DNA of 64,000 bases from a virus (Duplodnaviria; Heunggongvirae; Uroviricota; Caudoviricetes): positions 4,007 to 68,006 of the IMG/VR virus record IMGVR_UViG_3300048904_000202; one strand, 5' to 3'. The notes below the pieces were generated by a model. The model was not told the origin of the DNA, made no database searches, and saw only the letters and a list, made by a program, of their open reading frames with translations. A program made the translations under genes and the position numbers. The first letter of the stretch is position 1. Each line of letters opens with the position of its first letter. This document shows, piece by piece, positions 45,907 to 60,355 of this stretch.

Positions 45907-45916
45907 GCCCGGTTGT

Positions 45917-45993: not shown

Positions 45994-46008
45994 GTTTCAA
46001 AGACCCGT

Positions 46009-46359: not shown

Positions 46360-46887
46360 ATGGTCAAGAAGGTTATTCTCGCTGCCACCGTGGCCGGCCT
46401 CGCGCTGACTGCTTCGGCCTGTAACCGGGCTCCCGCCTATGGTTACTACAACGACGGCTACTATGCCGGCGCAAACACGCAGGTCTGCACCGATCGCGCC
46501 GGCCGCCGCGTCCCCGATATCAACTGCCAGCAGGCCTATTACGGCGGCGGCTACAATCCCTACCTCTGGTATTATGTCGGCGGCGGTTACCCCGTTCCCT
46601 ATTACGGGACCGTGGTCCACGGCGGTACTTGGTCGCGTCCGTCGAACTTCCGCAGTTATGTCCGCGCACCGGCTCAAGCCAACGTGACCCGCTCGGTCGC
46701 CGTTTCGCGCGGCGGCCTCGGCTCGACCAGCCGCAGCTTCGCGCAGACCTATTCATCGCCGTCGCGCTCGTATTCGTCGAGCAGCTATTCGTCGCCGTCC
46801 CGATCCTACTCGTCGAGCAGCTATAGCTCGTCGCGTTCGTCGTTCAGCGGGGGCGGGCGCTCGTTCGGCGGGAGCGTCAGTTCGTGA
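46360..46887 (+). CDS. YgiB/DUF1190-like lipoprotein
   Basis: Lipobox TASAC, C.D..G.RV.D..C, Tyr/Gly-rich middle, SRGG.G, Ser-rich tail; adjacent to a Gsp-like ligase. Confidence 0.7.
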   Translation: MVKKVILAATVAGLALTASACNRAPAYGYYNDGYYAGANTQVCTDRAGRRVPDINCQQAYYGGGYNPYLWYYVGGGYPVPYYGTVVHGGTWSRPSNFRSYVRAPAQANVTRSVAVSRGGLGSTSRSFAQTYSSPSRSYSSSSYSSPSRSYSSSSYSSSRSSFSGGGRSFGGSVSS

Positions 46888-48035
46888 AGCGCATCCAGAC
46901 CACCCCGCGTACTGACTGGCAGGCCCGTATTCGTGATGCGGGGATGGTCTGGGCAGGCGCTGACACCGGCGGCTGGAATGAGTCCGCCTATTACTCCTTC
47001 ACCAATGAGGACATCGAGCGGATCGGCGAAGCCACCGCCGACCTCTATCGGCTGTTCATCCATTGCGGCGACGCAATGCTGGACTACCGCGACTTCTACT
47101 GGCTGCGTCAGATGGGGATGCCCGAGTGGCTGTTCCCCTATCTCAAGGCGGCGTGGGACGCGGAACCACCGGCTCTCAATTTCGGTCGCTTCGATCTCGG
47201 GTTCGACGGTCGCAATGACCCGAAGCTGTTCGAGTTCAACTGCGACACGCCCGGCAGCCTGATCGAGGCATCGTTGGCGCAAGCGATCTGGCGCGAGGAC
47301 CTGTTCCCGCGCGGTGACCAGTTCAACGGTATCAACCGGGCGCTCGTGTCGCGCTGGGCCGACCTTCGCACCTCGTTCTACGGTCGCACCTTCCACATGA
47401 CGCACGTCTTCGACGAGGACGGCGAGGACACAGCCATCACCAACTATCTGGCCGAGACCGCTCGCATGGCTGGTCTCGATCCCATGATGGTGGTGATCGA
47501 CGACATCGGTCAGGACGAGGAAGGTCGCTTCGTTGACGCCGACGACATCCTCATGGACGTGGTGTACAAGCACTACCCGTGGGAGTGGATCGTCCGTGAA
47601 GAATACGGCCGCGCCATCGTCGAGCAGTCCTCGGACCCGATGCTATGGATCGAGCCGATCTGGAAGATGCTCTGGTCGAACAAGGGAATCCTCGTCGTCG
47701 CCAAGGCGCTGGAGCCCGAGAACCCTTACCTGCTTAACGCCAGCTTCGGGGATACCGGCGCGAAGGACTTCGTGAAGAAGCCCATCTTCTCGCGACGTGG
47801 TGAGAACATCGAGATCGTAGATCAGCGCCAGACCAGCGCGCGGTCCACCGGCGGCTACGGTGCCGAGGGCTTCGTCTATCAGGAGAAGTTCGATCTCCCC
47901 GAGATGGCTCCCGGCATCTTCCCGGTGATCGACTCGTGGATCGTCGGCGGCGTCGCAGTCGGCATGGGTGTCCGCGAAGGCGGCCTCATCACAGACAGTT
48001 CGGCGGCTTTCGTCCCTCACATTATCGAGGGGTGA
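46884..48035 (+). CDS. Glutathionylspermidine synthase family ATP-grasp ligase (YgiC-like)
   Basis: W.ESAYY, GRFDLG.DG...KLFEFNCDTP, YPWEW, IEP.WK...SNKG, KKPIFSR.GENI. Confidence 0.9.
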   Translation: MKRIQTTPRTDWQARIRDAGMVWAGADTGGWNESAYYSFTNEDIERIGEATADLYRLFIHCGDAMLDYRDFYWLRQMGMPEWLFPYLKAAWDAEPPALNFGRFDLGFDGRNDPKLFEFNCDTPGSLIEASLAQAIWREDLFPRGDQFNGINRALVSRWADLRTSFYGRTFHMTHVFDEDGEDTAITNYLAETARMAGLDPMMVVIDDIGQDEEGRFVDADDILMDVVYKHYPWEWIVREEYGRAIVEQSSDPMLWIEPIWKMLWSNKGILVVAKALEPENPYLLNASFGDTGAKDFVKKPIFSRRGENIEIVDQRQTSARSTGGYGAEGFVYQEKFDLPEMAPGIFPVIDSWIVGGVAVGMGVREGGLITDSSAAFVPHIIEG

Positions 48036-48036
48036 G

Positions 48037-48318
48037 ATGAGCTACGACGGCAGTGTGAAGTGGCAGCATGTCGAGGCTGCTCTGGCCCGTGATGGCTTCG
48101 CGCTGACGTTCGCCTGCACCTACGGCGAGTCTCTCCCCGCCGACCTTGAGTACACCGGCCGGGAAACCGGCTGGGAACTTCGCCGGAAGCTGAAATCCTA
48201 CTGTGCCTCACATGGGATCACCAACTTCCAGATCATTCGCAACACGAGCTACCACCGCGATCTGCACGGCAACGCCGTCTACGAGTTGTGGACTCGCCCT
48301 AACCAGATTGAGGGCTGA
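48037..48318 (+). CDS. Hypothetical protein
   Basis: Co-oriented. Confidence 0.55.
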   Translation: MSYDGSVKWQHVEAALARDGFALTFACTYGESLPADLEYTGRETGWELRRKLKSYCASHGITNFQIIRNTSYHRDLHGNAVYELWTRPNQIEG

Positions 48319-48319
48319 C

Positions 48320-48541
48320 ATGGACGCGACACAATTCTGCTACTGGCTACAGGGCCTTTTCGAACTCGGCGAGCCGACGACGCTCGACGAAGTTCAGGTC
48401 GATCTCATCAAGCGACATCTCGCGATGGCTTTCGAGCATGACATCGACCGTCGCCCGCCAGTCGAAGAGCAGAAGGTCCTCAACAACATCCATGCTGGAA
48501 CAACGCCCGCGTTTCAGCGGCCAAAAGGGATGAGGTGCTGA
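48320..48541 (+). CDS. Conserved phage hypothetical protein
   Basis: QFCYWLQG.FEL...IK.HL...F pattern. Confidence 0.65.
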   Translation: MDATQFCYWLQGLFELGEPTTLDEVQVDLIKRHLAMAFEHDIDRRPPVEEQKVLNNIHAGTTPAFQRPKGMRC

Positions 48542-48542
48542 C

Positions 48543-48773
48543 ATGGATACCGATCCCGCCACAATCGCGTCGAAGCTCAACCGTGGACAGAAGTCCACCA
48601 TCCGCTGCCTCGACGATACCCCGTCCGTTCTCGGCTGCGCCGAACCAACGGCTTTACGGCTTTCGCGCGCCACAACTCGCCGGCCGGCGCTGACCTATTA
48701 CACGCAAGGCGCTTCGTGGAAGATGTTCGCCCTCACGCCGATCGGACTCGAAGTTCAGGAGCATTGTTCGTGA
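48543..48773 (+). CDS. Hypothetical protein
   Basis: Co-oriented. Confidence 0.5.
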   Translation: MDTDPATIASKLNRGQKSTIRCLDDTPSVLGCAEPTALRLSRATTRRPALTYYTQGASWKMFALTPIGLEVQEHCS

Positions 48774-49294
48774 CCAGTCCCGCCATGCACTACGCCATCA
48801 CGGCCCACGCCATCACGGCCCACGCCATCACGGCCCACGCCGGCCAAACCTATGGCGACAATGCGGTTCCCTACACGGAACATCTCTTCGCGGTCCGACA
48901 GGTGCTGCGGGACTTCGGGTATTTCGGCGACTATGAAGATGCCGGCGTCCTCCATGACGTGATCGAGGACACCGCCGAGAGCCGCCGCACCGTGGCCGTC
49001 AAGTTCGGAGATCGGGTCGCCACCATGGCGTGGGTCTGCACCGGCGTTGGCCCGAACCGCGTCGTTCGCAACTGGTCCATCTACGCCAAGATGAGCATGT
49101 TTCCCGAGGCCGCGCCGGTGAAGGTCGCCGATCGGATCGCGAATGTCGAGCAGGCCACACCCGGATCGAAACACGCCAAGATGTATCTCGCCGAAGCGGG
49201 TGAGTTCCACGAACACGTCGCGCGGCTCGTGCCTCCACTGATGCAGGCCCGTCTCCTGCGGGCCTACGACGCCGCAGCACAGGTGCCGGCATGA
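48770..49294 (+). CDS. HD-domain (p)ppGpp hydrolase-like protein (SpoT-HD/Mesh1 type)
   Basis: AH.GQ.Y....PY..HL..V, AGVLHDVIEDT, VKVADRIAN. Confidence 0.8.
   Translation: MTSPAMHYAITAHAITAHAITAHAGQTYGDNAVPYTEHLFAVRQVLRDFGYFGDYEDAGVLHDVIEDTAESRRTVAVKFGDRVATMAWVCTGVGPNRVVRNWSIYAKMSMFPEAAPVKVADRIANVEQATPGSKHAKMYLAEAGEFHEHVARLVPPLMQARLLRAYDAAAQVPA
48792..48841 (+). repeat. 15-nt perfect tandem repeat x3.3 (AITAH)
   Basis: ACGCCATCACGGCCC x3 plus ACGCC. Confidence 0.95.
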
Positions 49295-49410
49295 CCCTCG
49301 GTGGCTTCCTCCTCATGCTGGTGATCGTGTTCGTCATCGTCCTGTTCGTCGCGATCGTATGCGGCGTGGACCTGTCGGACATCTTCTTCTTCCTGCCGGA
49401 CGGTAACTGA
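49291..49410 (+). CDS. Small membrane protein (not in ORF track)
   Basis: MTLGGFLLMLVIVFVIVLFVAIVCG...; coupled on both sides. Confidence 0.5.
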   Translation: MTLGGFLLMLVIVFVIVLFVAIVCGVDLSDIFFFLPDGN

Positions 49411-49610
49411 TGACCGCGCGCCAGTTCGTCTTCCTACTCCAGTGGGGTTGGTTGATGTTGCTCGCTGGTCTCTTCTCGCTTCTCTGCATGCCGATGTTCG
49501 CCATGCACGCGTGGATGGAGCGCAAGCCTCATCCGTGGCGCTGGGCGTGGGGTGTGGTGTCGAGCGGCGGCTTTCGGGATTTCGCGAAGGATTGGAGAAA
49601 GTACGGATGA
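49410..49610 (+). CDS. Small membrane protein
   Basis: TM helix; coupled. Confidence 0.5.
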   Translation: MTARQFVFLLQWGWLMLLAGLFSLLCMPMFAMHAWMERKPHPWRWAWGVVSSGGFRDFAKDWRKYG

Positions 49611-50119
49611 ACAAGCTCCAAGCCGCGACCGACACCGTCAAGGAACTGCTCTGCTGGTACGTCATCCTGCTGTTCGCAGCAGCCGGCGTCTACATGTTCG
49701 CGGAACACACATCACTCGACGACGCGCTCTATTGGGCAGCGACCACCGCGACCTCGACCGGGTATGGTGACCTGTCGCCGAAGACGATCGCCGGCCGGAT
49801 TGATGCCGTGCTGCTCATGCACATCTCGATCTTCGTCATCGCGCCCATGATGATCGTCCGCCTCATCGACAGGATGCGCGTCGATCCGAACGTCTTCACG
49901 GACGAGGAGCAGAAGGAGGTGCTGGAACACCTGCGAGCGATCCGGGACAAGGTCGGTGAGCCGGATTACGGCAAGTCGCCCCGTCTAGCTCAGACGCTCA
50001 GGCAGCTTCGCAACACCTATTACCACATGCTGCGAGCGCCTGATTTCTGCACGAAGGCTGCTGCGGCCTCCATCAAGATGGCGATCGACCAGCTTGAGAA
50101 AGTGGCGAAGGAACAGTGA
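49607..50119 (+). CDS. Two-TM potassium channel (KcsA-like pore)
   Basis: TM1-pore helix (DALYWAATT)-TSTGYGDLSP filter-TM2. Confidence 0.85.
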   Translation: MNKLQAATDTVKELLCWYVILLFAAAGVYMFAEHTSLDDALYWAATTATSTGYGDLSPKTIAGRIDAVLLMHISIFVIAPMMIVRLIDRMRVDPNVFTDEEQKEVLEHLRAIRDKVGEPDYGKSPRLAQTLRQLRNTYYHMLRAPDFCTKAAAASIKMAIDQLEKVAKEQ

Positions 50120-50283
50120 TGGACGACATCGACGTGGATCAGTTCGTGGCCGAAGAGATCGAGAGCCTCCGCCGCTTCGCTGCGATGTGGAAATCCGAAT
50201 CGGCGAACGACCCGGAAATCTGGCCGGCGAACATGCGGCGCGGCGAATGGGATGAGCAGTTCCGCTCGTACGAGGGCGCGTGA
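50119..50283 (+). CDS. Hypothetical protein (not in ORF track)
   Basis: MDDIDVDQFVAEE...WDEQF; coupled. Confidence 0.5.
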   Translation: MDDIDVDQFVAEEIESLRRFAAMWKSESANDPEIWPANMRRGEWDEQFRSYEGA

Positions 50284-50591
50284 TGACGGACCCTATCGGC
50301 AACTGCGAATGCGGCGCACCGCTGGCTGAGACCGGTCCGCCGATCTGGGAAACCTACTGCACGGACGAGAAGTGCAAGGTCGCTTGGAACAAACTGGTCA
50401 AGGCTATCCGCGAGGCGCCGTTGCCGCCGCTTACCGGACGATATGCCGCCGAGATCAAGCAGATCGCTGCCGAGCTTCGCCATACCTACGACCATCTGGT
50501 GAATGGCACCACCAGTGATCCCGCCGAATTGGCGAGAGGCCTGCTCGGCCCACAGATCGTGCGGCTTGAGAAGCTGACAGGAGGGAAGTGA
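50280..50591 (+). CDS. Hypothetical protein
   Basis: Coupled; CECG...C....C. Confidence 0.5.
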   Translation: MMTDPIGNCECGAPLAETGPPIWETYCTDEKCKVAWNKLVKAIREAPLPPLTGRYAAEIKQIAAELRHTYDHLVNGTTSDPAELARGLLGPQIVRLEKLTGGK

Positions 50592-51223
50592 TGAAGAACA
50601 ACGTCTATTACGAAGCCGTCGCAGGTGAGGTTCTCGCCTTCTGCTTCGACTACCGCGAGCGCCTGATCGCAAAGCGCGACGTGTTTCAGGAGTACGCCAA
50701 GTCCAAGGGCGCGAAGGGCTGGGTTGGTTCATGGGGTGATTTCTTCGGCCTGCTCTATGAGCGCGATGCCGATCGCCCTAAAGGCCTTGTTGCCGCCAAG
50801 CGCAAGACCAACGACGGCTACACTGTCTGGCGTCCCCATGGGAAGTCGCCCGAGGGTAAGGAACTTCGCCGCGAGTTCGACGACCTTGGTCGAGAGCCAC
50901 GTGGTCACGAGTTCTGCAAGCGGTTCAACATCCCGGAGTCCTTGAGCTACCGGAAGTCCGAGGAGTGCTACGGCACCATGGCGCTCAACGCCATCTTCCC
51001 CGACTCGGCCTTCATCGGCTGGACCGGAGAAGGTGACGATCTTCGCTTCTGGGTCGTGCTACCGGACGTGGATGGTGCCATCGCCGACAAGACTGCCGAG
51101 GGTTACACCTGCGATCCTGCTTCGTGGACTCTGCCGGCCGGGCTAATTCTCTCCAGCCGAGCCCGCTACGATCTCGCCGTGGCGCAGGCCAAGGTGCGGG
51201 AAGAGGAGCTTGAGGCGGCGTGA
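50588..51223 (+). CDS. Hypothetical protein
   Basis: GGAGGG RBS; 211 aa. Confidence 0.65.
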   Translation: MMKNNVYYEAVAGEVLAFCFDYRERLIAKRDVFQEYAKSKGAKGWVGSWGDFFGLLYERDADRPKGLVAAKRKTNDGYTVWRPHGKSPEGKELRREFDDLGREPRGHEFCKRFNIPESLSYRKSEECYGTMALNAIFPDSAFIGWTGEGDDLRFWVVLPDVDGAIADKTAEGYTCDPASWTLPAGLILSSRARYDLAVAQAKVREEELEAA

Positions 51224-51438
51224 TCACCGACGATCAACTGGTGGCGCTGCTCATCGACGCCCACACCACCCGGCACGATCCCGAGTTCGGATCGAGCTAT
51301 CACCAGACCGACCGCTTCGATGTCGAGATCGAGAACGGGATCATCAAGGTCGGCACCGGCGGAGGTGACTTCTACGCGGTGACGCTCGATCTCGAACAGT
51401 TCCGTGCCGGCGTCGAAGCCCTGATCCGGAGCGATTGA
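51220..51438 (+). CDS. Hypothetical protein
   Basis: GTGA overlap. Confidence 0.5.
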   Translation: MITDDQLVALLIDAHTTRHDPEFGSSYHQTDRFDVEIENGIIKVGTGGGDFYAVTLDLEQFRAGVEALIRSD

Positions 51439-51632
51439 TGCTCACCTACCTAGACCGGGCTTTCTGCACCGCCAAGTGTCTCACCCTCGATTGTCCACGC
51501 AACGTGACGCCAGAGGTCGAAGCGGCTGCGGAGAAATGGTGGGGAGGCCCGGATTTCCCGATGAGGCTCATGCCGCTCAATGAGCAGTGTGATGGCTACC
51601 AGCCAGCGCCGGAGGGCATCTGCAATGCCTAA
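51435..51632 (+). CDS. Small Cys-rich protein
   Basis: D..FC....C....C.R pattern. Confidence 0.55.
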   Translation: MMLTYLDRAFCTAKCLTLDCPRNVTPEVEAAAEKWWGGPDFPMRLMPLNEQCDGYQPAPEGICNA

Positions 51633-51996
51633 GGCCGGACGATTGCAGTGCAAGGACATCCCGGATCAGCCGATCCTCCAGTTCCTACACGACCAGCCGG
51701 TAGTTGGCACCAGCGTCAGCAAGGACGGGTTACCGTTCAGGCGTTGGACCAACTGGTTCTGGGACCCGAAAGGATCATATGAGCCAAATCCTGAATACGA
51801 ATACTTGCCTGACAACTCCGTTGCTCGTGCAATGCCGGAAGGCGTCTGTGACAAGCTGCGGATCGCCAAGATGGCGATGATGATCCGGCGCGGCATTGTG
51901 GATGGATGTCCGTGCGGGTGCCGAGGCGACTTTGTGATCACCAAGAAGGGCGAGGACCTGCTTGCCAAAATGAAAGAGGCCGAATGCCAGACGTAA
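51625..51996 (+). CDS. Hypothetical protein
   Basis: QCKDIPD.PIL.FL...L..GC.CGCRGDF.IT.KG. Confidence 0.6.
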   Translation: MPKAGRLQCKDIPDQPILQFLHDQPVVGTSVSKDGLPFRRWTNWFWDPKGSYEPNPEYEYLPDNSVARAMPEGVCDKLRIAKMAMMIRRGIVDGCPCGCRGDFVITKKGEDLLAKMKEAECQT

Positions 51997-52520
51997 CGTT
52001 CACAGATGACGTGCAGGTGGTGGGCCTCCCGTTCAAACCCGGTGATTGGGCCGTCGATCCGTGCGGCGAACGTGTAGCGAAGGTCGTTCGCGTCTACCGG
52101 TGCGGCGAAGATGTGCTGCTCGATCTCTCGATCTACAGCCATAAGGGCGAACGCCTCGGCCGGACCTCTCCGGCGATGGGTGGTCCAACGAAGACCGAGC
52201 CCGCGTGTGATGCAAAGAATTGGGAGAGGATCGCCGAGCCTGACTTTCCGATCACCATAAAGTGGGTGCCCAGCAGCGACGGTAAGGTGTCGGCGCGATA
52301 TTGGGCAGGGGATCGTCTGCCGCCAGCCAACTACGTCCCTCGGCCGAAGAAACCGAAGGCGAAGCCGGCGACGCGTCGCTCCGATTTCCCAGCGACGCTG
52401 GACAAGGAAGAGTACCAGCATCTGGTGGAGCTTTTCGCCGGTGCCAACGATCCGATCGCCATCTCGATCGTGACCAAGGCGCAGGGGATGCTCGACTGGT
52501 ACACGAAGATCGGACTCTAG
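51984..52520 (+). CDS. Hypothetical protein
   Basis: Co-oriented; GAGG RBS. Confidence 0.55.
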   Translation: MPDVTFTDDVQVVGLPFKPGDWAVDPCGERVAKVVRVYRCGEDVLLDLSIYSHKGERLGRTSPAMGGPTKTEPACDAKNWERIAEPDFPITIKWVPSSDGKVSARYWAGDRLPPANYVPRPKKPKAKPATRRSDFPATLDKEEYQHLVELFAGANDPIAISIVTKAQGMLDWYTKIGL

Positions 52521-52557
52521 CCAGACAAACTTTTTTCGTCCTTATGTCGATTTTGGG

Positions 52558-52586
52558 TTGACCTAGACCATCCGCCTGTGTATAAG
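52558..52586 (+). promoter_or_regulatory. Sigma70-type promoter of tRNA operon 2
   Basis: TTGACC-N17-TATAAG. Confidence 0.8.
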
Positions 52587-52633
52587 CCCACCTCTCGACG
52601 CACTTCCGCGTCAACAGGATTATTGAGACCACC

Positions 52634-52690
52634 ATGTTCTTCGGGACCAAACGAGATCGCCGAGAAGGCGAACGAGGTTTTAGCCTCTAA
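52634..52690 (+). CDS. Leader peptide 2 (MFFGTKRDRREGERGFSL)
   Basis: 14 of 18 residues are F/G/K/R/D/E, the amino acids of the downstream tRNAs. Confidence 0.75.
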   Translation: MFFGTKRDRREGERGFSL

Positions 52691-52726
52691 CCCGGTGGTG
52701 TGTCCTGCTGCCGGTGTCGTTTTGAC

Positions 52727-52803
52727 GGATCGGTAGCTCAATAGCGTAGAGCGGTGGGTTCTTACCCCGCAGGTTGTGGGTTCGACCCCCACCCGATCCT
52801 CCA
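52727..52803 (+). tRNA. tRNA-Lys(CTT)
   Basis: Cloverleaf, encoded CCA. Confidence 0.9.
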
Positions 52804-52825
52804 AAACGACATCGGTAAAATTGAC

Positions 52826-52854
52826 ACCCCATCGGCGACCCCGGTGGGGTTTTT
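52826..52854 (+). terminator. Attenuator terminator after the first tRNA of operon 2
   Basis: ACCCCATCGG/CCGGTGGGGT stem plus T-run. Confidence 0.7.
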
Positions 52855-52876
52855 CGCGTCCGCATTCTCGGCTCAT

Positions 52877-52951
52877 GGATCGGTAACTCAATGGGCAGAG
52901 TGGCGGACTTTTAATCCGAGGGTGTGGGTTCGAGGCCCACCCGATCTACCA
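52877..52951 (+). tRNA. tRNA-Lys(TTT)
   Basis: Cloverleaf, encoded CCA. Confidence 0.9.
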
Positions 52952-52967
52952 AATTTCACGGGCCTGA

Positions 52968-53040
52968 GCGGTTGTAGTCTCAGCGGTAGAGCGTCGGCTT
53001 GCCAAGTCGAAGGTCGCGGGTTCGATCCCCGCCTGCCGCT
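52968..53040 (+). tRNA. tRNA-Gly(GCC), CCA not encoded
   Basis: Anticodon GCC, U73. Confidence 0.85.
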
Positions 53041-53156
53041 CAAGCCCGTGATCACAAGTTTCCAGCGGGGTCCGCGCCAGTCCAAGACCTTCATGGGAAA
53101 GCCGATCGACCATAGGACCAGCGCAGTTGGTCGATCGTGAAATGAGATGTGTTGAT

Positions 53157-53231
53157 GCGGCCGTAGCCAAGCGGTCAAGGCAGGAGGCTTCCACCCTCCC
53201 AGCGCGGGTTCGATCCCCGCCGGCCGCTCCA
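53157..53231 (+). tRNA. tRNA-Gly(TCC)
   Basis: Cloverleaf, U73, encoded CCA. Confidence 0.9.
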
Positions 53232-53242
53232 TCACCTCTCAC

Positions 53243-53317
53243 GGACACGTAGCTCAGTGGTAGAGTCTCGCACTGTCGATGCGAGTGTCGCGGGTTCGAT
53301 CCCCGTCGTGTCCGCCA
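53243..53317 (+). tRNA. tRNA-Asp(GTC)
   Basis: Cloverleaf, G73, encoded CCA. Confidence 0.9.
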
Positions 53318-53323
53318 CTTCAC

Positions 53324-53399
53324 GGCCCGTTCGTCTAGCTGGACAGGACGACCGCCTCTCACGCGGTAAGCAGGGGTTCGATCCCCCTACGGGCTACCA
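53324..53399 (+). tRNA. tRNA-Glu(CTC)
   Basis: Cloverleaf, encoded CCA. Confidence 0.9.
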
Positions 53400-53420
53400 G
53401 TACCCACATGCTTTCAGCAT

Positions 53421-53494
53421 GGCCCCATAGACTAAGGGTAGGTCGCCAGTTTTTCACGCTGGAAGTCGGAGTTCAATTCTCCGTGGGGCTACCA
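53421..53494 (+). tRNA. tRNA-Glu(TTC)
   Basis: Cloverleaf, encoded CCA. Confidence 0.9.
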
Positions 53495-53536
53495 ATTTGA
53501 CGGACACCGCGCTGGTCGCGATCCGTCCACGAGTAC

Positions 53537-53612
53537 GCCGCTATAGCTCAACAGGATAGAGCGCGGGATTACGAATCCCAAGGTCGAGGTTCGAGTCCTC
53601 GTAGCGGCTCCA
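53537..53612 (+). tRNA. tRNA-Arg(ACG)
   Basis: Cloverleaf, encoded CCA. Confidence 0.9.
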
Positions 53613-53620
53613 GCCTCTTC

Positions 53621-53695
53621 GCCGAGGTAGCTCAGTGGTAGAGCGCCGGCTTGAAATCCCGGAAGTCGCAGGTTCAACTCCTGCTCTCGGCACCA
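53621..53695 (+). tRNA. tRNA-Phe(GAA)
   Basis: Cloverleaf, encoded CCA. Confidence 0.9.
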
Positions 53696-53735
53696 TCTCC
53701 AAATAGGGAAAATAACACTGCGTCAAAAATAGTTG

Positions 53736-53764
53736 TTGACACTACCACTCGACCTGTGTATAAG
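53736..53764 (+). promoter_or_regulatory. Sigma70-type promoter of tRNA operon 3
   Basis: TTGACA-N17-TATAAG. Confidence 0.8.
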
Positions 53765-53771
53765 CCGCTCC

Positions 53772-53852
53772 ATGTTCACACAGACCCTCTTGAGCCTAAC
53801 CGGCACGACGCTTTGGCATTATTGCCAACAGCATCTGAGTTCATCCCTCTAA
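53772..53852 (+). CDS. Leader peptide 3 (MFTQTLLSLTGTTLWHYCQQHLSSSL), probably leaderless mRNA
   Basis: 23 of 26 residues are S/Y/L/T/H/Q/C/W, the amino acids of the downstream tRNAs; ATG lies 7 nt after the -10 box. Confidence 0.78.
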   Translation: MFTQTLLSLTGTTLWHYCQQHLSSSL

Positions 53853-53887
53853 GGGGAGTGGTCTGACGCCCGCTCCCCTCTCCATAC

Positions 53888-53975
53888 GGAGGGTTGGCAG
53901 AGTGGGTTATTGCGGCGGTCTCGAAAACCGCTGAACCGAAAGGTTCCGTGGGTTCAAATCCCACACCCTCCTCCA
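53888..53975 (+). tRNA. tRNA-Ser(CGA)
   Basis: Long variable arm, encoded CCA. Confidence 0.9.
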
Positions 53976-53984
53976 GATTTTCAG

Positions 53985-54024
53985 AGCGTCAGCAGCCTAC
54001 GGGCCGCTGGCGCTTTTTCGTTTT
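53985..54024 (+). terminator. Attenuator terminator after the first tRNA of operon 3
   Basis: AGCGTCAGC/GCTGGCGCT stem plus TTTTTCGTTTT. Confidence 0.75.
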
Positions 54025-54114
54025 GGGTCGTCTTCCCCTCGCCGGACTGTAACCCCGGTGCCATCGAACCGAGGGGCTGTGTGGCGGGAGGTTCGAGTCC
54101 TCGACGACCCACCA
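54025..54114 (+). tRNA. Non-canonical tRNA-Tyr(GTA) lacking a D arm
   Basis: Perfect 7-bp acceptor, A73, CCA, T arm and GTA anticodon arm; only 10 nt where the D arm should be. Confidence 0.7.
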
Positions 54115-54157
54115 TTCTATTCCAGCAGGAGTACGATCAAGAGTTCACGAGTTGCAC

Positions 54158-54245
54158 GCACTGGTGGCGGAACTGGATATACGCAGCAAGCTCAGACCTT
54201 GCCGCCCTTTGAGGATTGTGGGTTCGAGTCCCACCCGGTGTACCA
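54158..54245 (+). tRNA. tRNA-Leu(CAG)
   Basis: Long V arm, A73, encoded CCA. Confidence 0.9.
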
Positions 54246-54256
54246 GCAACTCGAAC

Positions 54257-54341
54257 GCGGATGTGGTGAAATAGGTAAACGCAGCGGGTCGAGAGCCCGC
54301 CGGCTTCGGCCTTGTGGGTTCAAGTCCCACCTTCCGCACCA
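54257..54341 (+). tRNA. tRNA-Leu(GAG)
   Basis: Long V arm, A73, encoded CCA. Confidence 0.9.
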
Positions 54342-54355
54342 GTTACCTCGTGATT

Positions 54356-54429
54356 GCCGGCGTAGCTCAATGGTAGAGCTACGGCGTCGTAACCCGTAGA
54401 CCTGAGTTCGATTCTCAGCGCCGGCTCCA
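54356..54429 (+). tRNA. tRNA-Thr(CGT)
   Basis: Cloverleaf, encoded CCA. Confidence 0.85.
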
Positions 54430-54457
54430 CGAGTTGATCAGTGTCCATGGGCGTGGT

Positions 54458-54533
54458 GTGGCCTAACGCAATACAGTGCGCGGCCGGATTGTGACTCCGG
54501 TGCTAGAGGGTGCAGGTCCCTCAGGTCACCCCA
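54458..54533 (+). tRNA. tRNA-His(GTG), divergent D/T loops, C73
   Basis: GTGGCCT/AGGTCAC acceptor, CCGGA-TTGTGAC-TCCGG arm, encoded CCA. Confidence 0.75.
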
Positions 54534-54547
54534 CGCCCATGGATAGT

Positions 54548-54621
54548 TGCCCCTTCGGCTAATGGTAAGCCTTCTGACTCTGAATCAGACAATCGAGGTT
54601 CGATTCCTCGCGGGGCATCCA
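54548..54621 (+). tRNA. tRNA-Gln(CTG)
   Basis: Cloverleaf, U1-A72, encoded CCA. Confidence 0.9.
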
Positions 54622-54676
54622 GATTAGGGAGACGACGATATGGACGATACTCTCGATCGACAACCGAACGGCTTAA

Positions 54677-54750
54677 TGCCCGTTCGGCTAATGGTAAGTC
54701 GCTGCACTTTGAATGCGGAGACCTTGGTTCGATCCCAAGACGGGCATCCA
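54677..54750 (+). tRNA. tRNA-Gln(TTG)
   Basis: Cloverleaf, encoded CCA. Confidence 0.9.
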
Positions 54751-54752
54751 GA

Positions 54753-55079
54753 TCAGAGCGTCGTGTATCCGTTATCGATGCACATGCTCATGATGCCGTA
54801 ACGCAGTGTGGTGTTGTCCGCCGGGCTGGTGACATAGGCCTGATCGGCCCGAACGATGTGGCCAGCGGCGTTGCGGTAAATCGCTACCTTGAAGGTGCGG
54901 CCGTTCGCCCGTCCGCACACGACAACGGCGTCGGACTTGACCGGATCGGTTGCGATCTGCGGACGGTTGGGCAGGAAGCTGGCGATGGCGTTAGAGATCA
55001 CAACCTTCTCGGTAGGCAGCAAGGGGCGCGCCTCGGCCGAGGGTGTAGCGACAAGAGCCGCGATGAGGATTAAGGACAT
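54753..55079 (-). CDS. Secreted hypothetical protein, antisense within tRNA operon 3
   Basis: Signal peptide MSLILIAALVATPSAEA; VVCG..NG and terminal C; AGGAGAA RBS. Confidence 0.6.
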   Translation of the reverse strand: MSLILIAALVATPSAEARPLLPTEKVVISNAIASFLPNRPQIATDPVKSDAVVVCGRANGRTFKVAIYRNAAGHIVRADQAYVTSPADNTTLRYGIMSMCIDNGYTTL

Positions 55080-55158
55080 GGGGGTTCTCCTATCTGGTGG
55101 AATTTCTGCCGGACCATAGGATGGACCGATAAAGGAGACAACAAGATTCAGGGTTAAC

Positions 55159-55245
55159 GGAAGGTTGGCCGAGCGGTAAGGCACCCGCTTGCTAGGCGGG
55201 CGAGACCTCAGGGTTGCGTGGGTTCGATCCCCACACCTTCCTCCA
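55159..55245 (+). tRNA. tRNA-Ser(GCT)
   Basis: Long V arm, encoded CCA. Confidence 0.9.
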
Positions 55246-55252
55246 CCCTGTT

Positions 55253-55301
55253 TGCGTCATATATGGCGCACTAACCGGCTTTATGCGTCATATATGGCGC
55301 A
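55253..55301. repeat. Duplicated 18-bp quasi-palindrome TGCGTCATATATGGCGCA
   Basis: Exact copies at 55253-55270 and 55284-55301. Confidence 0.85.
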
Positions 55302-55304
55302 AAC

Positions 55305-55378
55305 GGCGCGATGGCCGAGTGGTAAGGCTCCGGATTGCAACCCCGGCATCGCCGGTTCAATTCCGGCTCGCGTCTCCA
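55305..55378 (+). tRNA. tRNA-Cys(GCA)
   Basis: U73, encoded CCA. Confidence 0.9.
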
Positions 55379-55385
55379 GTTTCAT

Positions 55386-55460
55386 ATCGGTGTAGCTCAG
55401 TGGTAGAGCGGCGGCTTCCAATCCCGCGCGTCCGAGGTTCGATTCCTTGCACCGGTGCCA
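55386..55460 (+). tRNA. tRNA-Trp(CCA)
   Basis: G73, encoded CCA. Confidence 0.9.
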
Positions 55461-55967
55461 TTACGCTCCCAGCGGCTTGCGGAGGATGCCCCATTGGGAA
55501 ATCCCCGCCTTGCGCAGCAGGGAGACGGGCTCGAAAGCAGTGATGCTGTTGAAATACACGAGATGGTCATGGGGACTGGTTCGACGCTGATTTAGTCCGA
55601 GCGTTTCCAGTATCCGCATCACCCAATCCATATGAGGAACCGGCGAGGTCAGTAGCAACACGCCGCCGGGTTTTAGCAGGGCCTTCGCCTCCTCCGTGAA
55701 ATCAACATGCTCGATCACCTCGAAGGCCACGATCGCGTCAAACGACGCAGGCTCCAAACCGAGCTTTCGCCAATCGCGGATATCTCCGACGACATCGGCT
55801 GGCTCGACGATGTCATTCCCCACATAGTTGATCCATCCGTGGCTGCGAAGATACTCACCCACCCACCGCGACCCACACCCGATCTCTAGGATGCGGGCGT
55901 CTTTTGGCAGCGGGTTCAAAAAATACTCGATCTTCTTGCGCTGTGCATATTCACTCAGGGCCGGCAT
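55461..55967 (-). CDS. Class I SAM-dependent methyltransferase
   Basis: ILEIGCGS, SFDAIVAFEVIEH, LLKPGG.L.L.SP. Confidence 0.85.
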   Translation of the reverse strand: MPALSEYAQRKKIEYFLNPLPKDARILEIGCGSRWVGEYLRSHGWINYVGNDIVEPADVVGDIRDWRKLGLEPASFDAIVAFEVIEHVDFTEEAKALLKPGGVLLLTSPVPHMDWVMRILETLGLNQRRTSPHDHLVYFNSITAFEPVSLLRKAGISQWGILRKPLGA

Positions 55968-56216
55968 GACACCCCTCCTCGTCGCTCTAGATCGACCCTA
56001 AAGGCCTGATGGTTAACACTTTCCTACCGGAAAGAAACCAACTTATCAAACCACTTAAAGAGCGAAACGATCAGTCGGGGTCCGTACGGTCCACGATGCG
56101 AAAAAAGATGGGCCACGTATGGTCCATCTTTATGCACGCTTCATGTTGATTTGGTATCCTCTTGGGTCCGCGTCCCTCTCTGGATGCGTCATCCCCATCA
56201 TCCACGAGGAAGTACC

Positions 56217-56645
56217 ATGTCGAAGAGCAATACCTTCGAGAACGATCTGCTCAAGCTCATTTTTCAGGGGATCGCCATTCCGGGCATCGCTGACAACACT
56301 GCGACAGCGCCGTTGGGCAATCTGTACGTCGCGCTCCACACTGCCGATCCGGGCGAGGGTGGTGACCAGACCACCAACGAAGTGAACTACACCGGTTATG
56401 CCCGTGTCGCTGTCACCCGTTCGGGCGCTGGCTGGACCGTTGCTGGCTCAGTCGTGAGCCCGACGATTAATATCGACTTCCCCACAGGCACCGGAGGCGC
56501 CTCTACCGCAGCTTTCTTCTCGGTTGGTACCGCGCTGAACGGCGCCGGCAAGATTCTGTACTCGGGCACGATCACTCCGAGCATCGCCTGCGGCAACGGC
56601 GTCACCCCGCGTATCTCGACCGCCTCCACCATCACCGAGGATTAA
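56217..56645 (+). CDS. Putative virion structural (fibre/appendage) protein
   Basis: EN.LL...LYVALHTADPGE.G....E..Y.GYARVAV pattern of phage fibre-associated proteins. Confidence 0.65.
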   Translation: MSKSNTFENDLLKLIFQGIAIPGIADNTATAPLGNLYVALHTADPGEGGDQTTNEVNYTGYARVAVTRSGAGWTVAGSVVSPTINIDFPTGTGGASTAAFFSVGTALNGAGKILYSGTITPSIACGNGVTPRISTASTITED

Positions 56646-56666
56646 TCCTCGGCCCGAGGGGGCTTC

Positions 56667-58277
56667 ATGTCGAACGTCTTCACCGACTCCTTCTCCGGTA
56701 GCGCCACGGTCGTCGATCTTTCGACGCACACAGGCGAGACCGGACATGGATGGCTAGTTCATCCGGGTTTTTCCGGTGGAGCGATGCGAGTCTCTCCGCC
56801 GGGCGAAGTCACGTGTCCGGCGTTCTCCGACACTGCCTACATCATCAATCAGGACTTGCCGGCCGGCGACCTCGATTTCAAGGTCAGCATTCTTTACAAC
56901 CCTTCGGGCGCGTTCAGGGACGGCGGTATTATCTTTCGCGCGTCGACCACCGCCAAGACCTGTTACCTGATTCACTCAAGCCTCAACACCACCTACCTCA
57001 GTCGTTACCTAAACGGTACGGAAACGGTATTGGCGGCCGGGGATTTCGCCCGCACCAGTAACACCTACTACACGATGAGTGTGCGGGTGCGCGGAACCCG
57101 GATCACCATTCTCATGAATGGTACGCAGGTCGTTGATTTCGACGACACCAGCACTGCTGGTGCCAACTTGCCGTCGCCGGGCCGGTTCGGTCTGTATGGT
57201 CCGGCCGGTAACAAGTTCGACGATCTCCAGATCGATACCGCCGCTGCTGCCGCTACCTCGGCAGATGGTCTGGTGGCAGGAACTTCATCGGCAGTAGCGA
57301 CCGGCGTCACCATCAAGAACGCGTCAATGCTGTCCACGAACGGCGCGAGCGCGGCAGGGACCGGGACTGCTGTCATCACTGCTAACGGTGCCGCCGGTAG
57401 TAGCAGCACGGTCGGCGCAGTCGGCATCACGATCATCGAATCGATGTTCGCCATCCTCGGACAGGCGACTGGCGATGCGTTGACGCAAGTGGGCTACACC
57501 GGTTTTGGCAACGCGGCGGGTTCGGCGACCGCAGTAGCTGAAAGTGTTCTCTTCGAGACCGTTGTAGCGGTCGGTTCTGCATCTGGGACCACCGATACAC
57601 GAGTCACCACGAAGAGTTTTTCGCTCGGTTCCATGAGCAGCCGGGGAGCGTCGGACGCCTTCGCAATCAGTCGTGACGTACTGCCGGGCGAGACGTTTGG
57701 GCGTTCCCTCAACAACGCCGCAACGGTGTCCGGTGTCGGATCATCGGTGGTAACATCGATTGGCTTTTCGCGAGGCCTCGCTGAGGTTACCAGCATCCAT
57801 GCCCAAGGGTTCTTGACCGGTGTCGGTCTTGCTCAGGGCTTCTCGTTTGCCACCACCGACCCTCCCGAGCCAGTTGTCCATGCTGCGGTGGGAGCGTCGG
57901 TAAGTAAAGCAACGCTGCATATCGTCGCTTTGACCAACTTGATGGCCGCGCTCGGTCGTGCGTCTGGGAACTCGTTTGCCGGCGCGCCGCGCCGCGTCAT
58001 CATCGCAGGGGCCGCCTTGTCTGGTGGCGGTTCTTCGAGCGAGATCATCACGGCCAAGATCGCGCAAGCCGACGCGGCGTCGATCTCGATCTCCACGCTT
58101 ACCGCGATCTCGGGATCGTTCATCCACAAGCCGCCTCCGGTTACCCAGACCATGGTGCTGGCGGCGGTACCTCGCTCGCTTTCACTGCCGGCCGCCGGTC
58201 CTCGGATCATCACGCTCGCGGCACGAGCTTCCCGCACCATCACTCTCGCATCCCAAGCACGGACCATCACGCTATGA
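56667..58277 (+). CDS. Putative virion appendage protein: beta-sandwich (ConA-like) N-domain plus Ala/Ser/Gly/Thr-rich repeats
   Basis: Beta-rich N-terminus ending G.FGL...FDD; long small-residue stalk. Confidence 0.5.
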   Translation: MSNVFTDSFSGSATVVDLSTHTGETGHGWLVHPGFSGGAMRVSPPGEVTCPAFSDTAYIINQDLPAGDLDFKVSILYNPSGAFRDGGIIFRASTTAKTCYLIHSSLNTTYLSRYLNGTETVLAAGDFARTSNTYYTMSVRVRGTRITILMNGTQVVDFDDTSTAGANLPSPGRFGLYGPAGNKFDDLQIDTAAAAATSADGLVAGTSSAVATGVTIKNASMLSTNGASAAGTGTAVITANGAAGSSSTVGAVGITIIESMFAILGQATGDALTQVGYTGFGNAAGSATAVAESVLFETVVAVGSASGTTDTRVTTKSFSLGSMSSRGASDAFAISRDVLPGETFGRSLNNAATVSGVGSSVVTSIGFSRGLAEVTSIHAQGFLTGVGLAQGFSFATTDPPEPVVHAAVGASVSKATLHIVALTNLMAALGRASGNSFAGAPRRVIIAGAALSGGGSSSEIITAKIAQADAASISISTLTAISGSFIHKPPPVTQTMVLAAVPRSLSLPAAGPRIITLAARASRTITLASQARTITL

Positions 58278-58558
58278 GCTTCCCCAAGTTCCCGCATCCA
58301 AAAGACCCCGACGACGTGGCGGACTATGCCATCGATTGGACAGCACGACTCGACGCCGGTGATTCCCTTGCGGACTCTCTCTTCGAGGTGGTGTCGGGTA
58401 CCATTTTGCTGGGCGCTCAATCGATCGACGGCAACAAGGCCACCGTCTGGGTCAACGGTGGCGAAGACGGTGAAACGGCCACCATCCTCAACCGCGTGAC
58501 GACCACCGGTGGGCGGCAATACGACCAGACGTTCGCGCTAAAAATTAAGACGCAGTGA
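58274..58558 (+). CDS. Fibre/tail adaptor-like protein
   Basis: KDPDD..DY.IDW..RL..GD.L...VW.NGG..G....I.NRVTT.GGR..DQT. Confidence 0.65.
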   Translation: MSFPKFPHPKDPDDVADYAIDWTARLDAGDSLADSLFEVVSGTILLGAQSIDGNKATVWVNGGEDGETATILNRVTTTGGRQYDQTFALKIKTQ

Positions 58559-58567
58559 TATTCTTAG

Positions 58568-58596
58568 TTGACAGTGATGCGAATCACGTCTAGTAA
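58568..58596 (+). promoter_or_regulatory. Promoter of the ncRNA/tmRNA operon
   Basis: TTGACA-N17-TAGTAA. Confidence 0.7.
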
Positions 58597-58705
58597 GACT
58601 CAACACCGAGGGCAATGCTTCCGCTGCGTTCTTGGTTAGCGCCGTTCAGGTGGGTCACTGGACCCTTAAAGGCATGACCATCCATCACATCTGTGATGGT
58701 CCGCC

Positions 58706-58860
58706 GCCTGAGTGGAGCGACAAGTGATTACCGATCACTGGCGATCGGGATAGATGGTAACGGGCGCCCGCTTTCTCCCCTTGGGCCGGCGCACGGTGTT
58801 TCTAGGGCTTCGAGCCGTCTATCTCGGTCGCCAGTGATGTTCACTTGCGATGCGGCAGGC
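58706..58860 (+). ncRNA. Unidentified rod-like RNA with a 24-bp G-U-containing stem
   Basis: ATCACTGGCGATCGGGATAGATGG pairs with CCGTCTATCTCGGTCGCCAGTGAT; outer stems CAAGTGA/TCACTTG and GCCTG/CAGGC. Confidence 0.6.
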
Positions 58861-58939
58861 CTTGCCGACCGTGGAGGTCGGTTGGTCAACACTAGGCCGG
58901 CGAGGCAGGGAGTAGTGTCCCGGCAACGAGCTTTGGTCT

Positions 58940-59336
58940 GCCCCATCGCCAGTGATGGCGAGATGATCGTAATTCGGACGATCGAAGTTTTGGCTCGGAC
59001 GCGGGGGCGGTTCCCGCCGGTTCCACCACGAGCCCCGATATTACTGCCACTAGGGGCGACCTACCGCTCCGAAGAGGCGCGGAGTTATCGGCCGCGCTCT
59101 GTGTTCGGGGTTGATGATGGGGCCGAAGTAGGATTCGACGGGCAAGGCGGAGGTTAGGACGCGATCTAGCATGACCGACTACGCTTCGGCGAGACAGGTC
59201 ACCGTTTGTAAATGCGAACGACAACACTCCGGTGGTTGTCGCCCGCGACGAGGTTCGCCTCGCCGCGTAAGCGATAACTCTCAGCCTCCGGACTGAGAAA
59301 AGGGGCTCGGGGCCAGCCTTGCAACAGAATGGCCCC
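58940..59336 (+). ncRNA. ssrA: Circularly permuted two-piece tmRNA (alphaproteobacterial type); 5' boundary approximate
   Basis: Acceptor piece ends GCGGG-GGCGGTT-CCCGC-CGGTTCC-ACCA at 59028; coding piece starts GGGGCCGAAGTAGGATTCGACGGG at 59119 (G3:U70); tag ANDNTPVVVARDEVRLAA* at 59214-59270; terminal GGGGCC..CAACAGAA..GGCCCC hairpin. Confidence 0.9.
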
Positions 59337-59345
59337 ACGAGATTT

Positions 59346-59494
59346 GAGGTAGCTGGAGGTCGCCGGTTCGAGTCCGGTCATCCCCTGATCCGGGATGTAG
59401 CTCAGATGGTAGAGCGCCAGCGTAGGGGAGACACCGGTTCGACTCCGGTCCGGCTGTTGATCAGCAGCCGTTAGCTTAGAGGTAAAGCGCCTCG
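59346..59494 (+). ncRNA. Two tandem circularly permuted tRNA-like modules (T arm, loop-closed acceptor stem, D arm)
   Basis: T loops TTCGAGT and TTCGACT, canonical D arms, acceptor-like stems closed by TGATC-containing loops. Confidence 0.75.
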
Positions 59495-59790
59495 ATTTTG
59501 GGACGTGGTGAAACGATACATCCACATCTCCTTGAGCCGGCGAAAGCCTGACTGCCGGGAAAGTACGGTGAAGAGCAGTGCGGATGGAGGGCACTTGATC
59601 TTCGGATCAAGTCCGGGCAACAGAAACCCTCCACTGGTTTCGGGCTTTCAGCCCAGACGAGATGGGGTGGCAAGACAGCGCCGGGTGCGTCCGGCGTGGC
59701 ACGCACGCTAAGGCTGATGCTGATGTGTCTTGGGACCATCCCACCTATTTGCCGGGAGCAGGTTTGTGTCTCCCAATACAAAGTGATCCC
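59495..59790 (+). ncRNA. Unidentified structured RNA, about 290 nt
   Basis: cUUCGg hairpin 59593-59612 inside TGGAGGG/CCCTCCA; GGGCT/AGCCC and CGCCGG/CCGGCG hairpins; T-loop-like GGTGAAA, GGTGAAG and GCAACAG motifs. Confidence 0.5.
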
Positions 59791-59798
59791 GGCGGGTT

Positions 59799-59838
59799 AG
59801 GCCCGGTCGTTTTTCGGAACGACCGGGCCTTTCCTTTT
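59799..59838 (+). terminator. Terminator of the ncRNA operon
   Basis: 14-bp stem with TTCG loop, then TTCCTTTT. Confidence 0.8.
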
Positions 59839-59844
59839 GCGAAA

Positions 59845-59885
59845 GTGTTACTTTCGCTTGACATCTGGTGTTAGTTTAGCTTAAC
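59845..59885 (+). promoter_or_regulatory. Promoter with tandem GTGTTA-N7-TTRAC motifs
   Basis: GTGTTACTTTCGCTTGAC (59845-59862) and GTGTTAGTTTAGCTTAAC (59868-59885), 23-bp period. Confidence 0.7.
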
Positions 59886-59914
59886 AGTCTGAGACAACAG
59901 ACACAGGGCCGTTC

Positions 59915-60355
59915 ATGACCACGATCGCGTACCGTAGTGGCACCCTCGCTGCTGACTCTCAGATCGCTTACAGTAACTACCTGAACGGGCAACGCCCCAA
60001 GATCACCCAGTGCGGTCGCTTCCACGTTGCTCTCGCCGGAAAGGCTTGGCTGCGCCGACCGCTTGAAGAATGGTTAGCCGCTGGCGCCGACGAAGCCAAT
60101 GTTCCCGTCGAATTGATGGAGAACCAAGCTGAGTTCTCCTGTCTCATCGTCGATGACGACGGCGTTATGCTGACTTTCGATCGCGGGTATCTCCTACCTG
60201 TCGACGCTCCTTACGCCGCGATCGGCAGCGGCATGTTCTTCGCGATGGGCGCCATGGCTCATGGCGCCTCGGCTGAGGAAGCCGTCGCTGCGGCCATGGC
60301 CCATGACAAGAACACCGGCGGCCCGATCACCGTCGTCCGTTTTCCTCTTCACTGA
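59915..60355 (+). CDS. HslV/proteasome-beta-like Ntn hydrolase (Thr protease)
   Basis: N-terminal MTTIAY...AADSQ, K, AIGSG...AMGAM, D..TGG. Confidence 0.75.
   Translation: MTTIAYRSGTLAADSQIAYSNYLNGQRPKITQCGRFHVALAGKAWLRRPLEEWLAAGADEANVPVELMENQAEFSCLIVDDDGVMLTFDRGYLLPVDAPYAAIGSGMFFAMGAMAHGASAEEAVAAAMAHDKNTGGPITVVRFPLH

Follow-up and report, generated by a model that had tools for sequence, protein, structure and literature searches.

The leader of the third tRNA operon

In the present work, we examine the region in front of a phage tRNA operon by comparative sequence analysis and RNA structure prediction. The window, by which we mean the whole stretch of 64,000 nucleotides that was analysed, is part of a large phage with 27 tRNA/tmRNA genes in three blocks. 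The nearest records are Sphingobium phage Lacusarx and the Erythrobacter phages XM05 and vB_EliS-L02, and cultured hosts exist for two of these relatives, namely Sphingobium sp. IP1 for Lacusarx and Erythrobacter for vB_EliS-L02. A preliminary description of the locus had pointed to Caulobacter-like hosts. A phage of sphingomonad-type bacteria is more likely.

Three tRNA operons are found, each with its own promoter and its own short open reading frame (ORF). Operon 1 carries the tRNA set P, M, V, A, N, I, operon 2 the set K, G, D, E, R, F, and operon 3 the set S, Y, L, T, H, Q, C, W. The three amino-acid sets do not overlap and jointly comprise all 20 amino acids. The genes downstream in operon 3 are tRNAs only, with no enzymes of amino-acid biosynthesis among them.

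Two members of set 3, Tyr and His, are represented in the window by non-canonical elements. The Tyr-type element (54025-54114) has the anticodon loop CTGTAAC and intact acceptor and T arms, with no normal D arm. It is missed by ARAGORN, gives only a sub-threshold tRNA-Sec match in Rfam (25.9 bits), and lies where the relatives have a Tyr gene. The His-type element (ca 54440-54545) contains the hairpin CCGGA-TTGTGAC-TCCGG and a long acceptor-like helix, CCATGGGCGTGG/CCACGCCCATGG; it is located at the position of the relatives' tRNA-His(GTG) and is called neither by ARAGORN nor by Rfam. Also inserted within operon 3, on the minus strand, is an ORF (54753-55080; MSLILIAALVATPSAEA...) that looks like a signal peptide and has a Shine-Dalgarno-like GGAGAA ahead of its ATG. 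Further downstream there is a permuted tmRNA of the two-piece, alphaproteobacterial type (58936-59491) with the tag ANDNTPVVVARDEVRLAA, and weak YrlA-like and tRNA-like matches follow the tmRNA at 59354-59491.

The operon 3 leader was compared in 12 distinct sequences, the window included, which represent about nine lineages and were drawn from pattern scans of viral and metagenome contigs plus three phage records. Two partial relatives, but no transcript ends, were obtained from the contigs of four sequencing runs. Pattern searches with the tRNA-Ser anticodon arm added no family members, their matches being prophage att sites and unrelated tRNA arrays, and a scan of genome contigs gave chance matches only. 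When sequencing runs were searched, the stretch was present only in DNA metagenomes (root samples), and RNA runs shared just tRNA-sized fractions of its words.

The layout is common to all 12 sequences. A promoter and an ATG are followed by a short ORF, a stop codon at a hairpin, the hairpin loop, a tRNA-Ser gene and a terminator (Table 1). This anatomy and its conservation are observed directly.

Table 1. Features of the operon 3 leader and of its counterparts in operons 1 and 2 (positions in the window).
Feature	Position	Strand	Description
Operon 1	44731-44985		Promoter TTGACT-N18-TATAAG; leader MARNINNPAPMIAAVAAIVVVRVEDGGTQV, matched to Pro/Met/Val/Ala/Asn/Ile tRNAs
Operon 2 attenuator (proposed)	52635-52860		Leader MFFGTKRDRREGERGFSL, matched to the Lys/Gly/Asp/Glu/Arg/Phe tRNAs behind it
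Promoter P3	53736-53764	+	-35 box TTGACA (53736-53741), 17-nt spacer, -10 box TATAAG (53759-53764); A/T-rich stretch upstream
Leader ORF	53772-53852	+	26 codons and TAA (53850-53852); encodes MFTQTLLSLTGTTLWHYCQQHLSSSL
Hairpin P1, inside the ORF	53813-53828	+	TTGGCA/TGCCAA, loop TTAT; Trp, His, Tyr, Cys and Gln codons
Hairpin H	53852-53879	+	10-bp stem from the last base of the stop codon; arms AGGGGAGTGG (53852-53861) and CCGCTCCCCT (53870-53879), one U.G; 8-nt loop TCTGACGC
Loop motif L	53863-53869	+	CTGACGC; proposed 5' antiterminator strand, complementary to 53986-53992
tRNA-Ser(CGA)	53888-53975	+	ARAGORN; Rfam tRNA 58.1 bits; between leader and terminator
Intrinsic terminator T (predicted)	53985-54024	+	Outer stem AGCGTCAGC/GCTGGCGCT with conserved U.G wobble (pairing 53985-53993 with 54006-54014), short inner stem (53995-53997/54002-54004), tail TTTTTCGTTTT (54014-54024)
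Segment T5	53986-53992	+	GCGTCAG; segment of the terminator 5' arm complementary to L

The promoter layout TTGAC-N17-TAnnnT is found in 12 of 12 sequences, and similar layouts are present upstream of operons 1 and 2. In the window, 7 nt (CCGCTCC) separate the -10 box from the ATG (53772-53774), exactly as had been read in the preliminary description. The same spacing occurs in 11 of the 12 sequences, L240 having 9 nt instead, and all 12 ORFs start with ATG. There is no space for a Shine-Dalgarno site, and the earlier suggestion of a leaderless start is thereby supported. The transcription start is unmapped; the leader mRNA is probably leaderless, and the P3 RNA most likely begins at the leader AUG or 1-2 nt from it. 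It is also noted that the first 15 nt of the ORF are invariant, synonymous sites included, which indicates a constraint on the RNA or on initiation.

Reading frame and codon content of the leader ORF

The ORF has 22-27 codons in the 12 sequences, the lengths differing by multiples of three nucleotides. Its frame is open in all 12, and the other two frames contain stop codons in most of them. The stop codon adjoins hairpin H in every sequence, and the distance from its first base to the loop motif is 12-13 nt throughout, despite the varying length of the ORF. The open frame and the constant distance indicate that the frame is read and that the position of a ribosome at the stop codon matters to H. 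Without ribosome or RNA data, translation of the ORF as a sensor is supported by the sequence comparison only.

The amino-acid content of the ORF matches the tRNA genes behind it. After Met1, 23 of the 25 residues belong to the operon 3 set (binomial P = 1.6e-10). Six-frame translation of the window gives 72,853 stop-free stretches of 25 residues, and only 1 of these reaches the same count. The sister leaders behave alike. The residues after Met1 in sets 1, 2 and 3 number 21, 6 and 2 in the operon 1 leader (own-set binomial P 1.2e-5) and 0, 14 and 3 in the operon 2 leader (2.0e-4), compared with 0, 2 and 23 in the operon 3 leader, and for the resulting 3x3 table of leaders and tRNA sets the chi-square P is 6e-16. 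The leaders of operons 1 and 2 are also conserved in relatives, where they are matched to their own tRNA sets; for operon 1, similar leaders occur in four relatives. All eight set-3 amino acids are present in each of the nine relatives tallied for operon 3, and, by inspection, in three later peptides as well.

The rare residues were said to cluster as W-H-Y-C-Q-Q-H, and they do so in codons 15-21 (53814-53834). These same codons make hairpin P1, which is predicted in every relative, with its arms swapped (TGGCA..TGCCA versus TGCCA..TGGCA) or lengthened to 11 bp elsewhere. The conservation of P1 implies that the cluster is doubly constrained, by codon content and by structure. The middle of the peptide, in contrast, is not conserved in sequence; what is kept is its composition and the RNA structure, as predicted for a codon sensor and not for a functional peptide.

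Leu is encoded by CTC (twice), TTG, CTA, CTT and CTG, and Ser by AGC, AGT, TCA and TCC. This had been recorded as resembling a sampling of many isoacceptors. The combined diversity of the Leu, Ser and Thr codons is above the expectation from genome usage (P = 0.009), which fits the suggestion. The operon 3 tRNAs of the window, on the other hand, read just 16 of the 23 set-3 leader codons, no better than genome codon usage, and an enrichment of the leader for codons read by the phage's own tRNAs was rejected for this reason. The pooled tRNA repertoire of the family reads 22 of the 23. TCG, the commonest Ser codon in the genome (39%), is read by the tRNA-Ser(CGA) ahead of the terminator and was seen by inspection in only two of the 12 leaders, those of Lacusarx and L063.

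Hairpin H, terminator T and their complementarity

The hairpin reported behind the stop codon is present in the window, with a predicted ΔG of −19.4 kcal/mol. In five of its ten pairs both partners differ between members of the set of 12, with 90.8% of the cells paired, and the observed covariation score is matched by none of 500 shuffles. The pair 53859:53872, for example, is T.G in the window and T-A and C-G in the contigs of two metagenome relatives. Hairpin H is real.

The tRNA-Ser gene stands at the same position in all 12 sequences, its anticodon being CGA except for TGA in one. Behind it, terminator T is conserved in 12 of 12, with a GC-rich stem and a predicted ΔG of −21.0 kcal/mol. 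The outer stem (AGCGTCAG/CTGGCGCT) is near-invariant, including its U.G wobble, and the inner stem varies and covaries. The next tRNA-like gene starts at 54025 and has no promoter of its own, and no promoter-like sites were found downstream of T before 58568. This means that the later tRNAs of operon 3 depend on read-through of T.

Two further features of this region were noted. The sequence TTTTCG in the tail of T (54014-54024) is complementary to CGAAAA (53920-53926), that is, to the tRNA-Ser anticodon CGA and the A's that follow it. Every relative shows this complementarity, which may be due to chance. The Ser codon TCG is likewise part of the tail. Farther downstream, between tRNA-Ser(GCT) and tRNA-Cys, two small hairpins TGCGTCA-TATA-TGGCGCA occur at 55253-55301. 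Their arms and their U.G wobble are those of the outer stem of T, and they are absent from Lacusarx and XM05, where the two tRNA genes adjoin.

The loop of H consists of one variable nucleotide followed by CTGACGC, and the 7-mer is invariant in 12 of 12 sequences. As pointed out previously, it is perfectly complementary in the window to GCGTCAG in the left arm of the terminator, whereas the outer stem of T itself holds a U.G wobble. The number of Watson-Crick pairs between L and T5 is seven in 10 of the 12 sequences, six in L315 and five in Lacusarx. Since the 7-mer has about 10 occurrences per strand in 64 kb, the probability of a chance match within a 30-nt terminator arm is ca 0.004. The L:T5 duplex has a ΔG of −12.0 kcal/mol in the window, compared with −5.2 ± 2.3 for shuffled loops, and over the set the duplex energies of loop and terminator arm are −12 to −14 kcal/mol, with shuffled loops at about −5. 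The pairing is better than that of shuffled loops in 11 of 12 sequences (P ≤ 0.013), with z-scores of −3 to −5 in 10 of them. With the ORF and with the body of the tRNA, by contrast, the loop pairs less well than the shuffles do; judging from these comparisons, the loop looks as if it were kept free for one partner. The specific complementarity of loop and terminator is thus an observed property of the family.

The geometry of the loop is one nucleotide, seven pairing nucleotides and no further nucleotide in 11 of the 12 sequences (2 + 7 + 0 in L063). Such an arrangement, with one unpaired base, seven paired bases and a direct connection to the 3' arm, is that expected of an H-type pseudoknot whose stems are stacked. 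The loop-T5 contact fits such a pseudoknot, which is inferred from the complementarity only.

It is important to point out that the L:T5 helix does not covary. Five of its pairs are the same throughout, and the other two deviate solely through unpaired cells. Lacusarx has U-A in place of one A-U pair of the terminator while its loop is unchanged, which leaves 5 bp (P = 0.10), and in L315 one pair is lost. The loop-mediated antiterminator of the preliminary description is therefore only partly borne out, with the invariant loop and the specific complementarity in 11 of 12 sequences in its favour, but with no covariation and a weakening in two lineages.

A number of other pairings were considered. 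When the antiterminator is extended by pairing of the 5' arm of H with the inner terminator arm, the extension is significant in Lacusarx alone (P = 0.04). The T arm of the tRNA can also pair with the inner terminator arm, but outside the window and the L026 group this pairing lacks significance, and it is hence not general. Two helices appear in some minimum-energy folds, one between ORF codons 4-6 and the 5' arm and loop of H (helix S) and one between the 3' arm of H and the 5' end of tRNA-Ser (helix A). Neither is above shuffles and both are absent in the L026 group, and they were rejected as general switch elements on these grounds.

For the topology proposed for operon 3, good support comes from the sister operon 2, where the sequence directly behind the leader stop codon pairs with sequence behind tRNA-Lys(CTT). 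The resulting duplex is in two parts, measures ca 30 nt and takes in the 5' arm of the next terminator; its ΔG is −32 to −41 kcal/mol, with P ≤ 0.013 in eight of eight sequences and clear compensatory changes. The claim that the elements follow the same order in the two operons is supported by this equivalent, strongly covarying pairing across the first tRNA. A promoter, an ORF that fits the tRNA set and a terminator are found in all three operons, and operons 2 and 3 both place their first tRNA between the post-stop element and the terminator, while in operon 1 the terminator lies ahead of the first tRNA. The operons differ in two other respects: operons 1 and 2 have 5' leaders of ca 45-50 nt, whereas operon 3 is probably leaderless, and the two-part covarying duplex of operon 2 has only a 7-nt loop as its counterpart in operon 3.

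Possible mechanism, alternatives and known systems

We propose that the leader is a ribosome-mediated transcription attenuator that senses decoding speed and gates operon 3 of Lacusarx-like phages. We consider this probable, with substantial doubt remaining, as there are no expression data. In the absence of RNA data for the phage or its relatives, the transcription start, the translation of the ORF, the termination at T, and the regulation with its direction are all inferred.

In the proposed mechanism, ribosomes that slow anywhere in codons 2 to ca 23 would leave H folded while the polymerase transcribes the tRNA. With the 3' arm of the terminator still untranscribed, the loop of H would then capture the 5' arm as it emerges, yielding an H-type pseudoknot (1 nt, 7 bp, 0-nt junction) stacked on H. 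The base of T would be unable to close, the polymerase would read through, and the Tyr, Leu, Thr, His, Gln, Ser, Cys and Trp tRNA genes would be transcribed. With fast decoding, on the other hand, the ribosome would be found at the last codons or at the stop codon, where its leading edge would melt H up to the loop. No pseudoknot could form in that case, T would fold, and transcription would end past tRNA-Ser. Once the stop codon occupies the A site, the ribosome is expected to cover about 11-12 nt downstream of this codon, which takes in the complete 5' arm of H as far as the loop, and a ribosome at the stop or at any of the last three codons would accordingly exclude both H and the pseudoknot.

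The 88-nt tRNA would have two functions in this scheme: it would act as a delay line and, being a compact spacer, would place the loop close to the terminator. The ca 135 nt from H to the end of T, which are mostly tRNA, would give a leaderless-initiated ribosome time for the 26 codons. This timing, with the ribosome at the stop codon and the polymerase ca 135 nt ahead, is an inference. In both states tRNA-Ser(CGA) would be made, and in the absence of translation read-through would be the default. Equilibrium folding with ribosome masks was also performed, and the terminator wins in nearly all simulated states. Thermodynamics alone thus show no switch, and the switch would need kinetic control, as in classical attenuators.

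Another option is that the leader ORF attenuates without the loop acting as antiterminator. The CUGACGC loop and the CUGGCGC 3' arm of T could bind a protein of the phage or the host, or another RNA, or other pairings could provide the switch. The lack of covariation in L:T5, with uncompensated changes in Lacusarx and L315, would be understandable in that case, as would the consensus CUGRCGC that the loop and the terminator 3' arm have in common and the recurrence of the same arms in the two small hairpins at 55253-55301, and alternative folds do exist, between the 3' arm of H and the tRNA 5' end and between the 5' part of the ORF and the 5' arm of H. These folds, however, are not above shuffles in most lineages (P 0.03-0.8). 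The loop complementarity is specific to T5 and depleted elsewhere, the 1 + 7 + 0 geometry fits a pseudoknot, and operon 2 has an RNA-RNA pairing of the same topology that does covary. We regard this option as unlikely, though not as one that can be set aside.

The structures could also serve processing or stability, with H and the hairpins of the ORF protecting or guiding the maturation of pre-tRNA-Ser, T being a constitutive but leaky terminator by which the ratio of tRNA-Ser(CGA) to the other tRNAs is fixed, and the ORF being untranslated or irrelevant. Precursors of tRNA and rRNA often have structured leaders and flanking helices, an excess of tRNA-Ser(CGA) is sensible for the commonest Ser codon, and there is no expression evidence to contradict it. 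What this scenario leaves unexplained is that three leaders carry the amino acids of their own operons, that the frame and the position of the ATG after the -10 box are kept while the ORF length changes, and that the stop codon always adjoins H at a fixed distance to the loop, and we give it little credence. The idea that the ORF encodes a functional micropeptide, whose location ahead of the tRNAs is incidental, can draw on the conserved N-terminus MFTQT and C-terminus SSSL/SLSPF. With a middle in which only composition and RNA structure are kept, a length of 22-27 residues and no recognisable fold, and with a 5' end invariant even at synonymous sites, which speaks for a constraint on the RNA or on initiation, we find this idea highly improbable. 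The decoding-speed attenuator remains the reading that we adopt below.

Compared to known systems, such an attenuator would be closest in its logic to the enterobacterial leaders of ilvGMEDA/ilvBN and thr (also trpL, hisL, pheL and leuL). Both would have a short leader ORF rich in the sensed codons, a terminator before the regulated genes, and competing pairings among which the position of the ribosome selects. Hairpin P1 recalls the 1:2 hairpin of trp, in which the sensing codons also lie inside a hairpin, and its double constraint is like that of segment 1 of the trp leader. The operon 3 element differs in that it controls tRNAs instead of biosynthetic enzymes, senses eight amino-acid families at once, and probably has a leaderless mRNA. 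Its antiterminator would be a 7-nt hairpin loop in a pseudoknot and not a full alternative stem, and its sensor and terminator are separated by an entire tRNA gene. The untranslated default is also different, with read-through predicted here and superattenuation in the enterobacterial case.

T-box riboswitches, like the element proposed here, would couple tRNA supply to terminator read-through before translation-related genes. They bind uncharged tRNA directly, via the specifier codon and the T-box sequence and without a ribosome, while the proposed sensor of operon 3 is a translated ORF. A T-box identity was ruled out on this basis and because an Rfam scan (E ≤ 1, 44000-60000) gave no T-box or other cis-regulatory match in 53700-54030. 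The class I preQ1 riboswitch is an H-type pseudoknot switch that controls a terminator, and there, as proposed here, a hairpin loop pairs with a downstream strand and decides the fate of the terminator. In the geometry common to both, loop 1 would have 1 nt, stem 2 would have 6-7 bp and the junction would be stacked. In operon 3, unlike in preQ1-type pseudoknots, the downstream strand is ca 115 nt away beyond a tRNA. The pseudoknot would moreover prevent termination instead of promoting it, and the trigger would be the position of a ribosome and not a ligand.

The control of tRNA operons known to us acts at the promoter, through growth rate and the stringent response, and not via leader peptides. 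A literature search gave no account of leader-peptide control of tRNA operons, although its coverage is incomplete and absence is not proven by it, and the genome papers of Lacusarx and vB_EliS-L02 do not mention leaders or attenuation. Relative to the ilv and thr attenuators, the new aspects would be the tRNA targets, the leaderless sensor, the loop-type antiterminator and the embedded tRNA, with the caveat that the mechanism has not been demonstrated. Since Lacusarx and vB_EliS-L02 have cultured hosts, the attenuator idea is directly testable.

A wider proposal, which we make only tentatively and for which the doubts somewhat outweigh the support, is that this phage family runs a demand-sensing supply of tRNAs for all 20 amino acids, in three operons that are each gated by a leader taking a census of codons. 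Operon 3 would be the leaderless variant, with a pseudoknot across a tRNA that acts as timer and scaffold, and would be on by default. If this is true, such a supply would counter the loss of host tRNAs in infection, for example by host shut-off or anticodon nucleases, and operon 3 would be turned off only once ribosomes decode all the test codons quickly. Being compact and modular, the design could also be put to use in synthetic sensing of tRNA or codon supply. If the attenuator operates as proposed, the phage would measure decoding speed directly and top up its tRNA sets on demand, and the principle of trp, his and ilv attenuation would extend to the translation apparatus itself, which bears on the question of why phages carry tRNA genes and how these are controlled.
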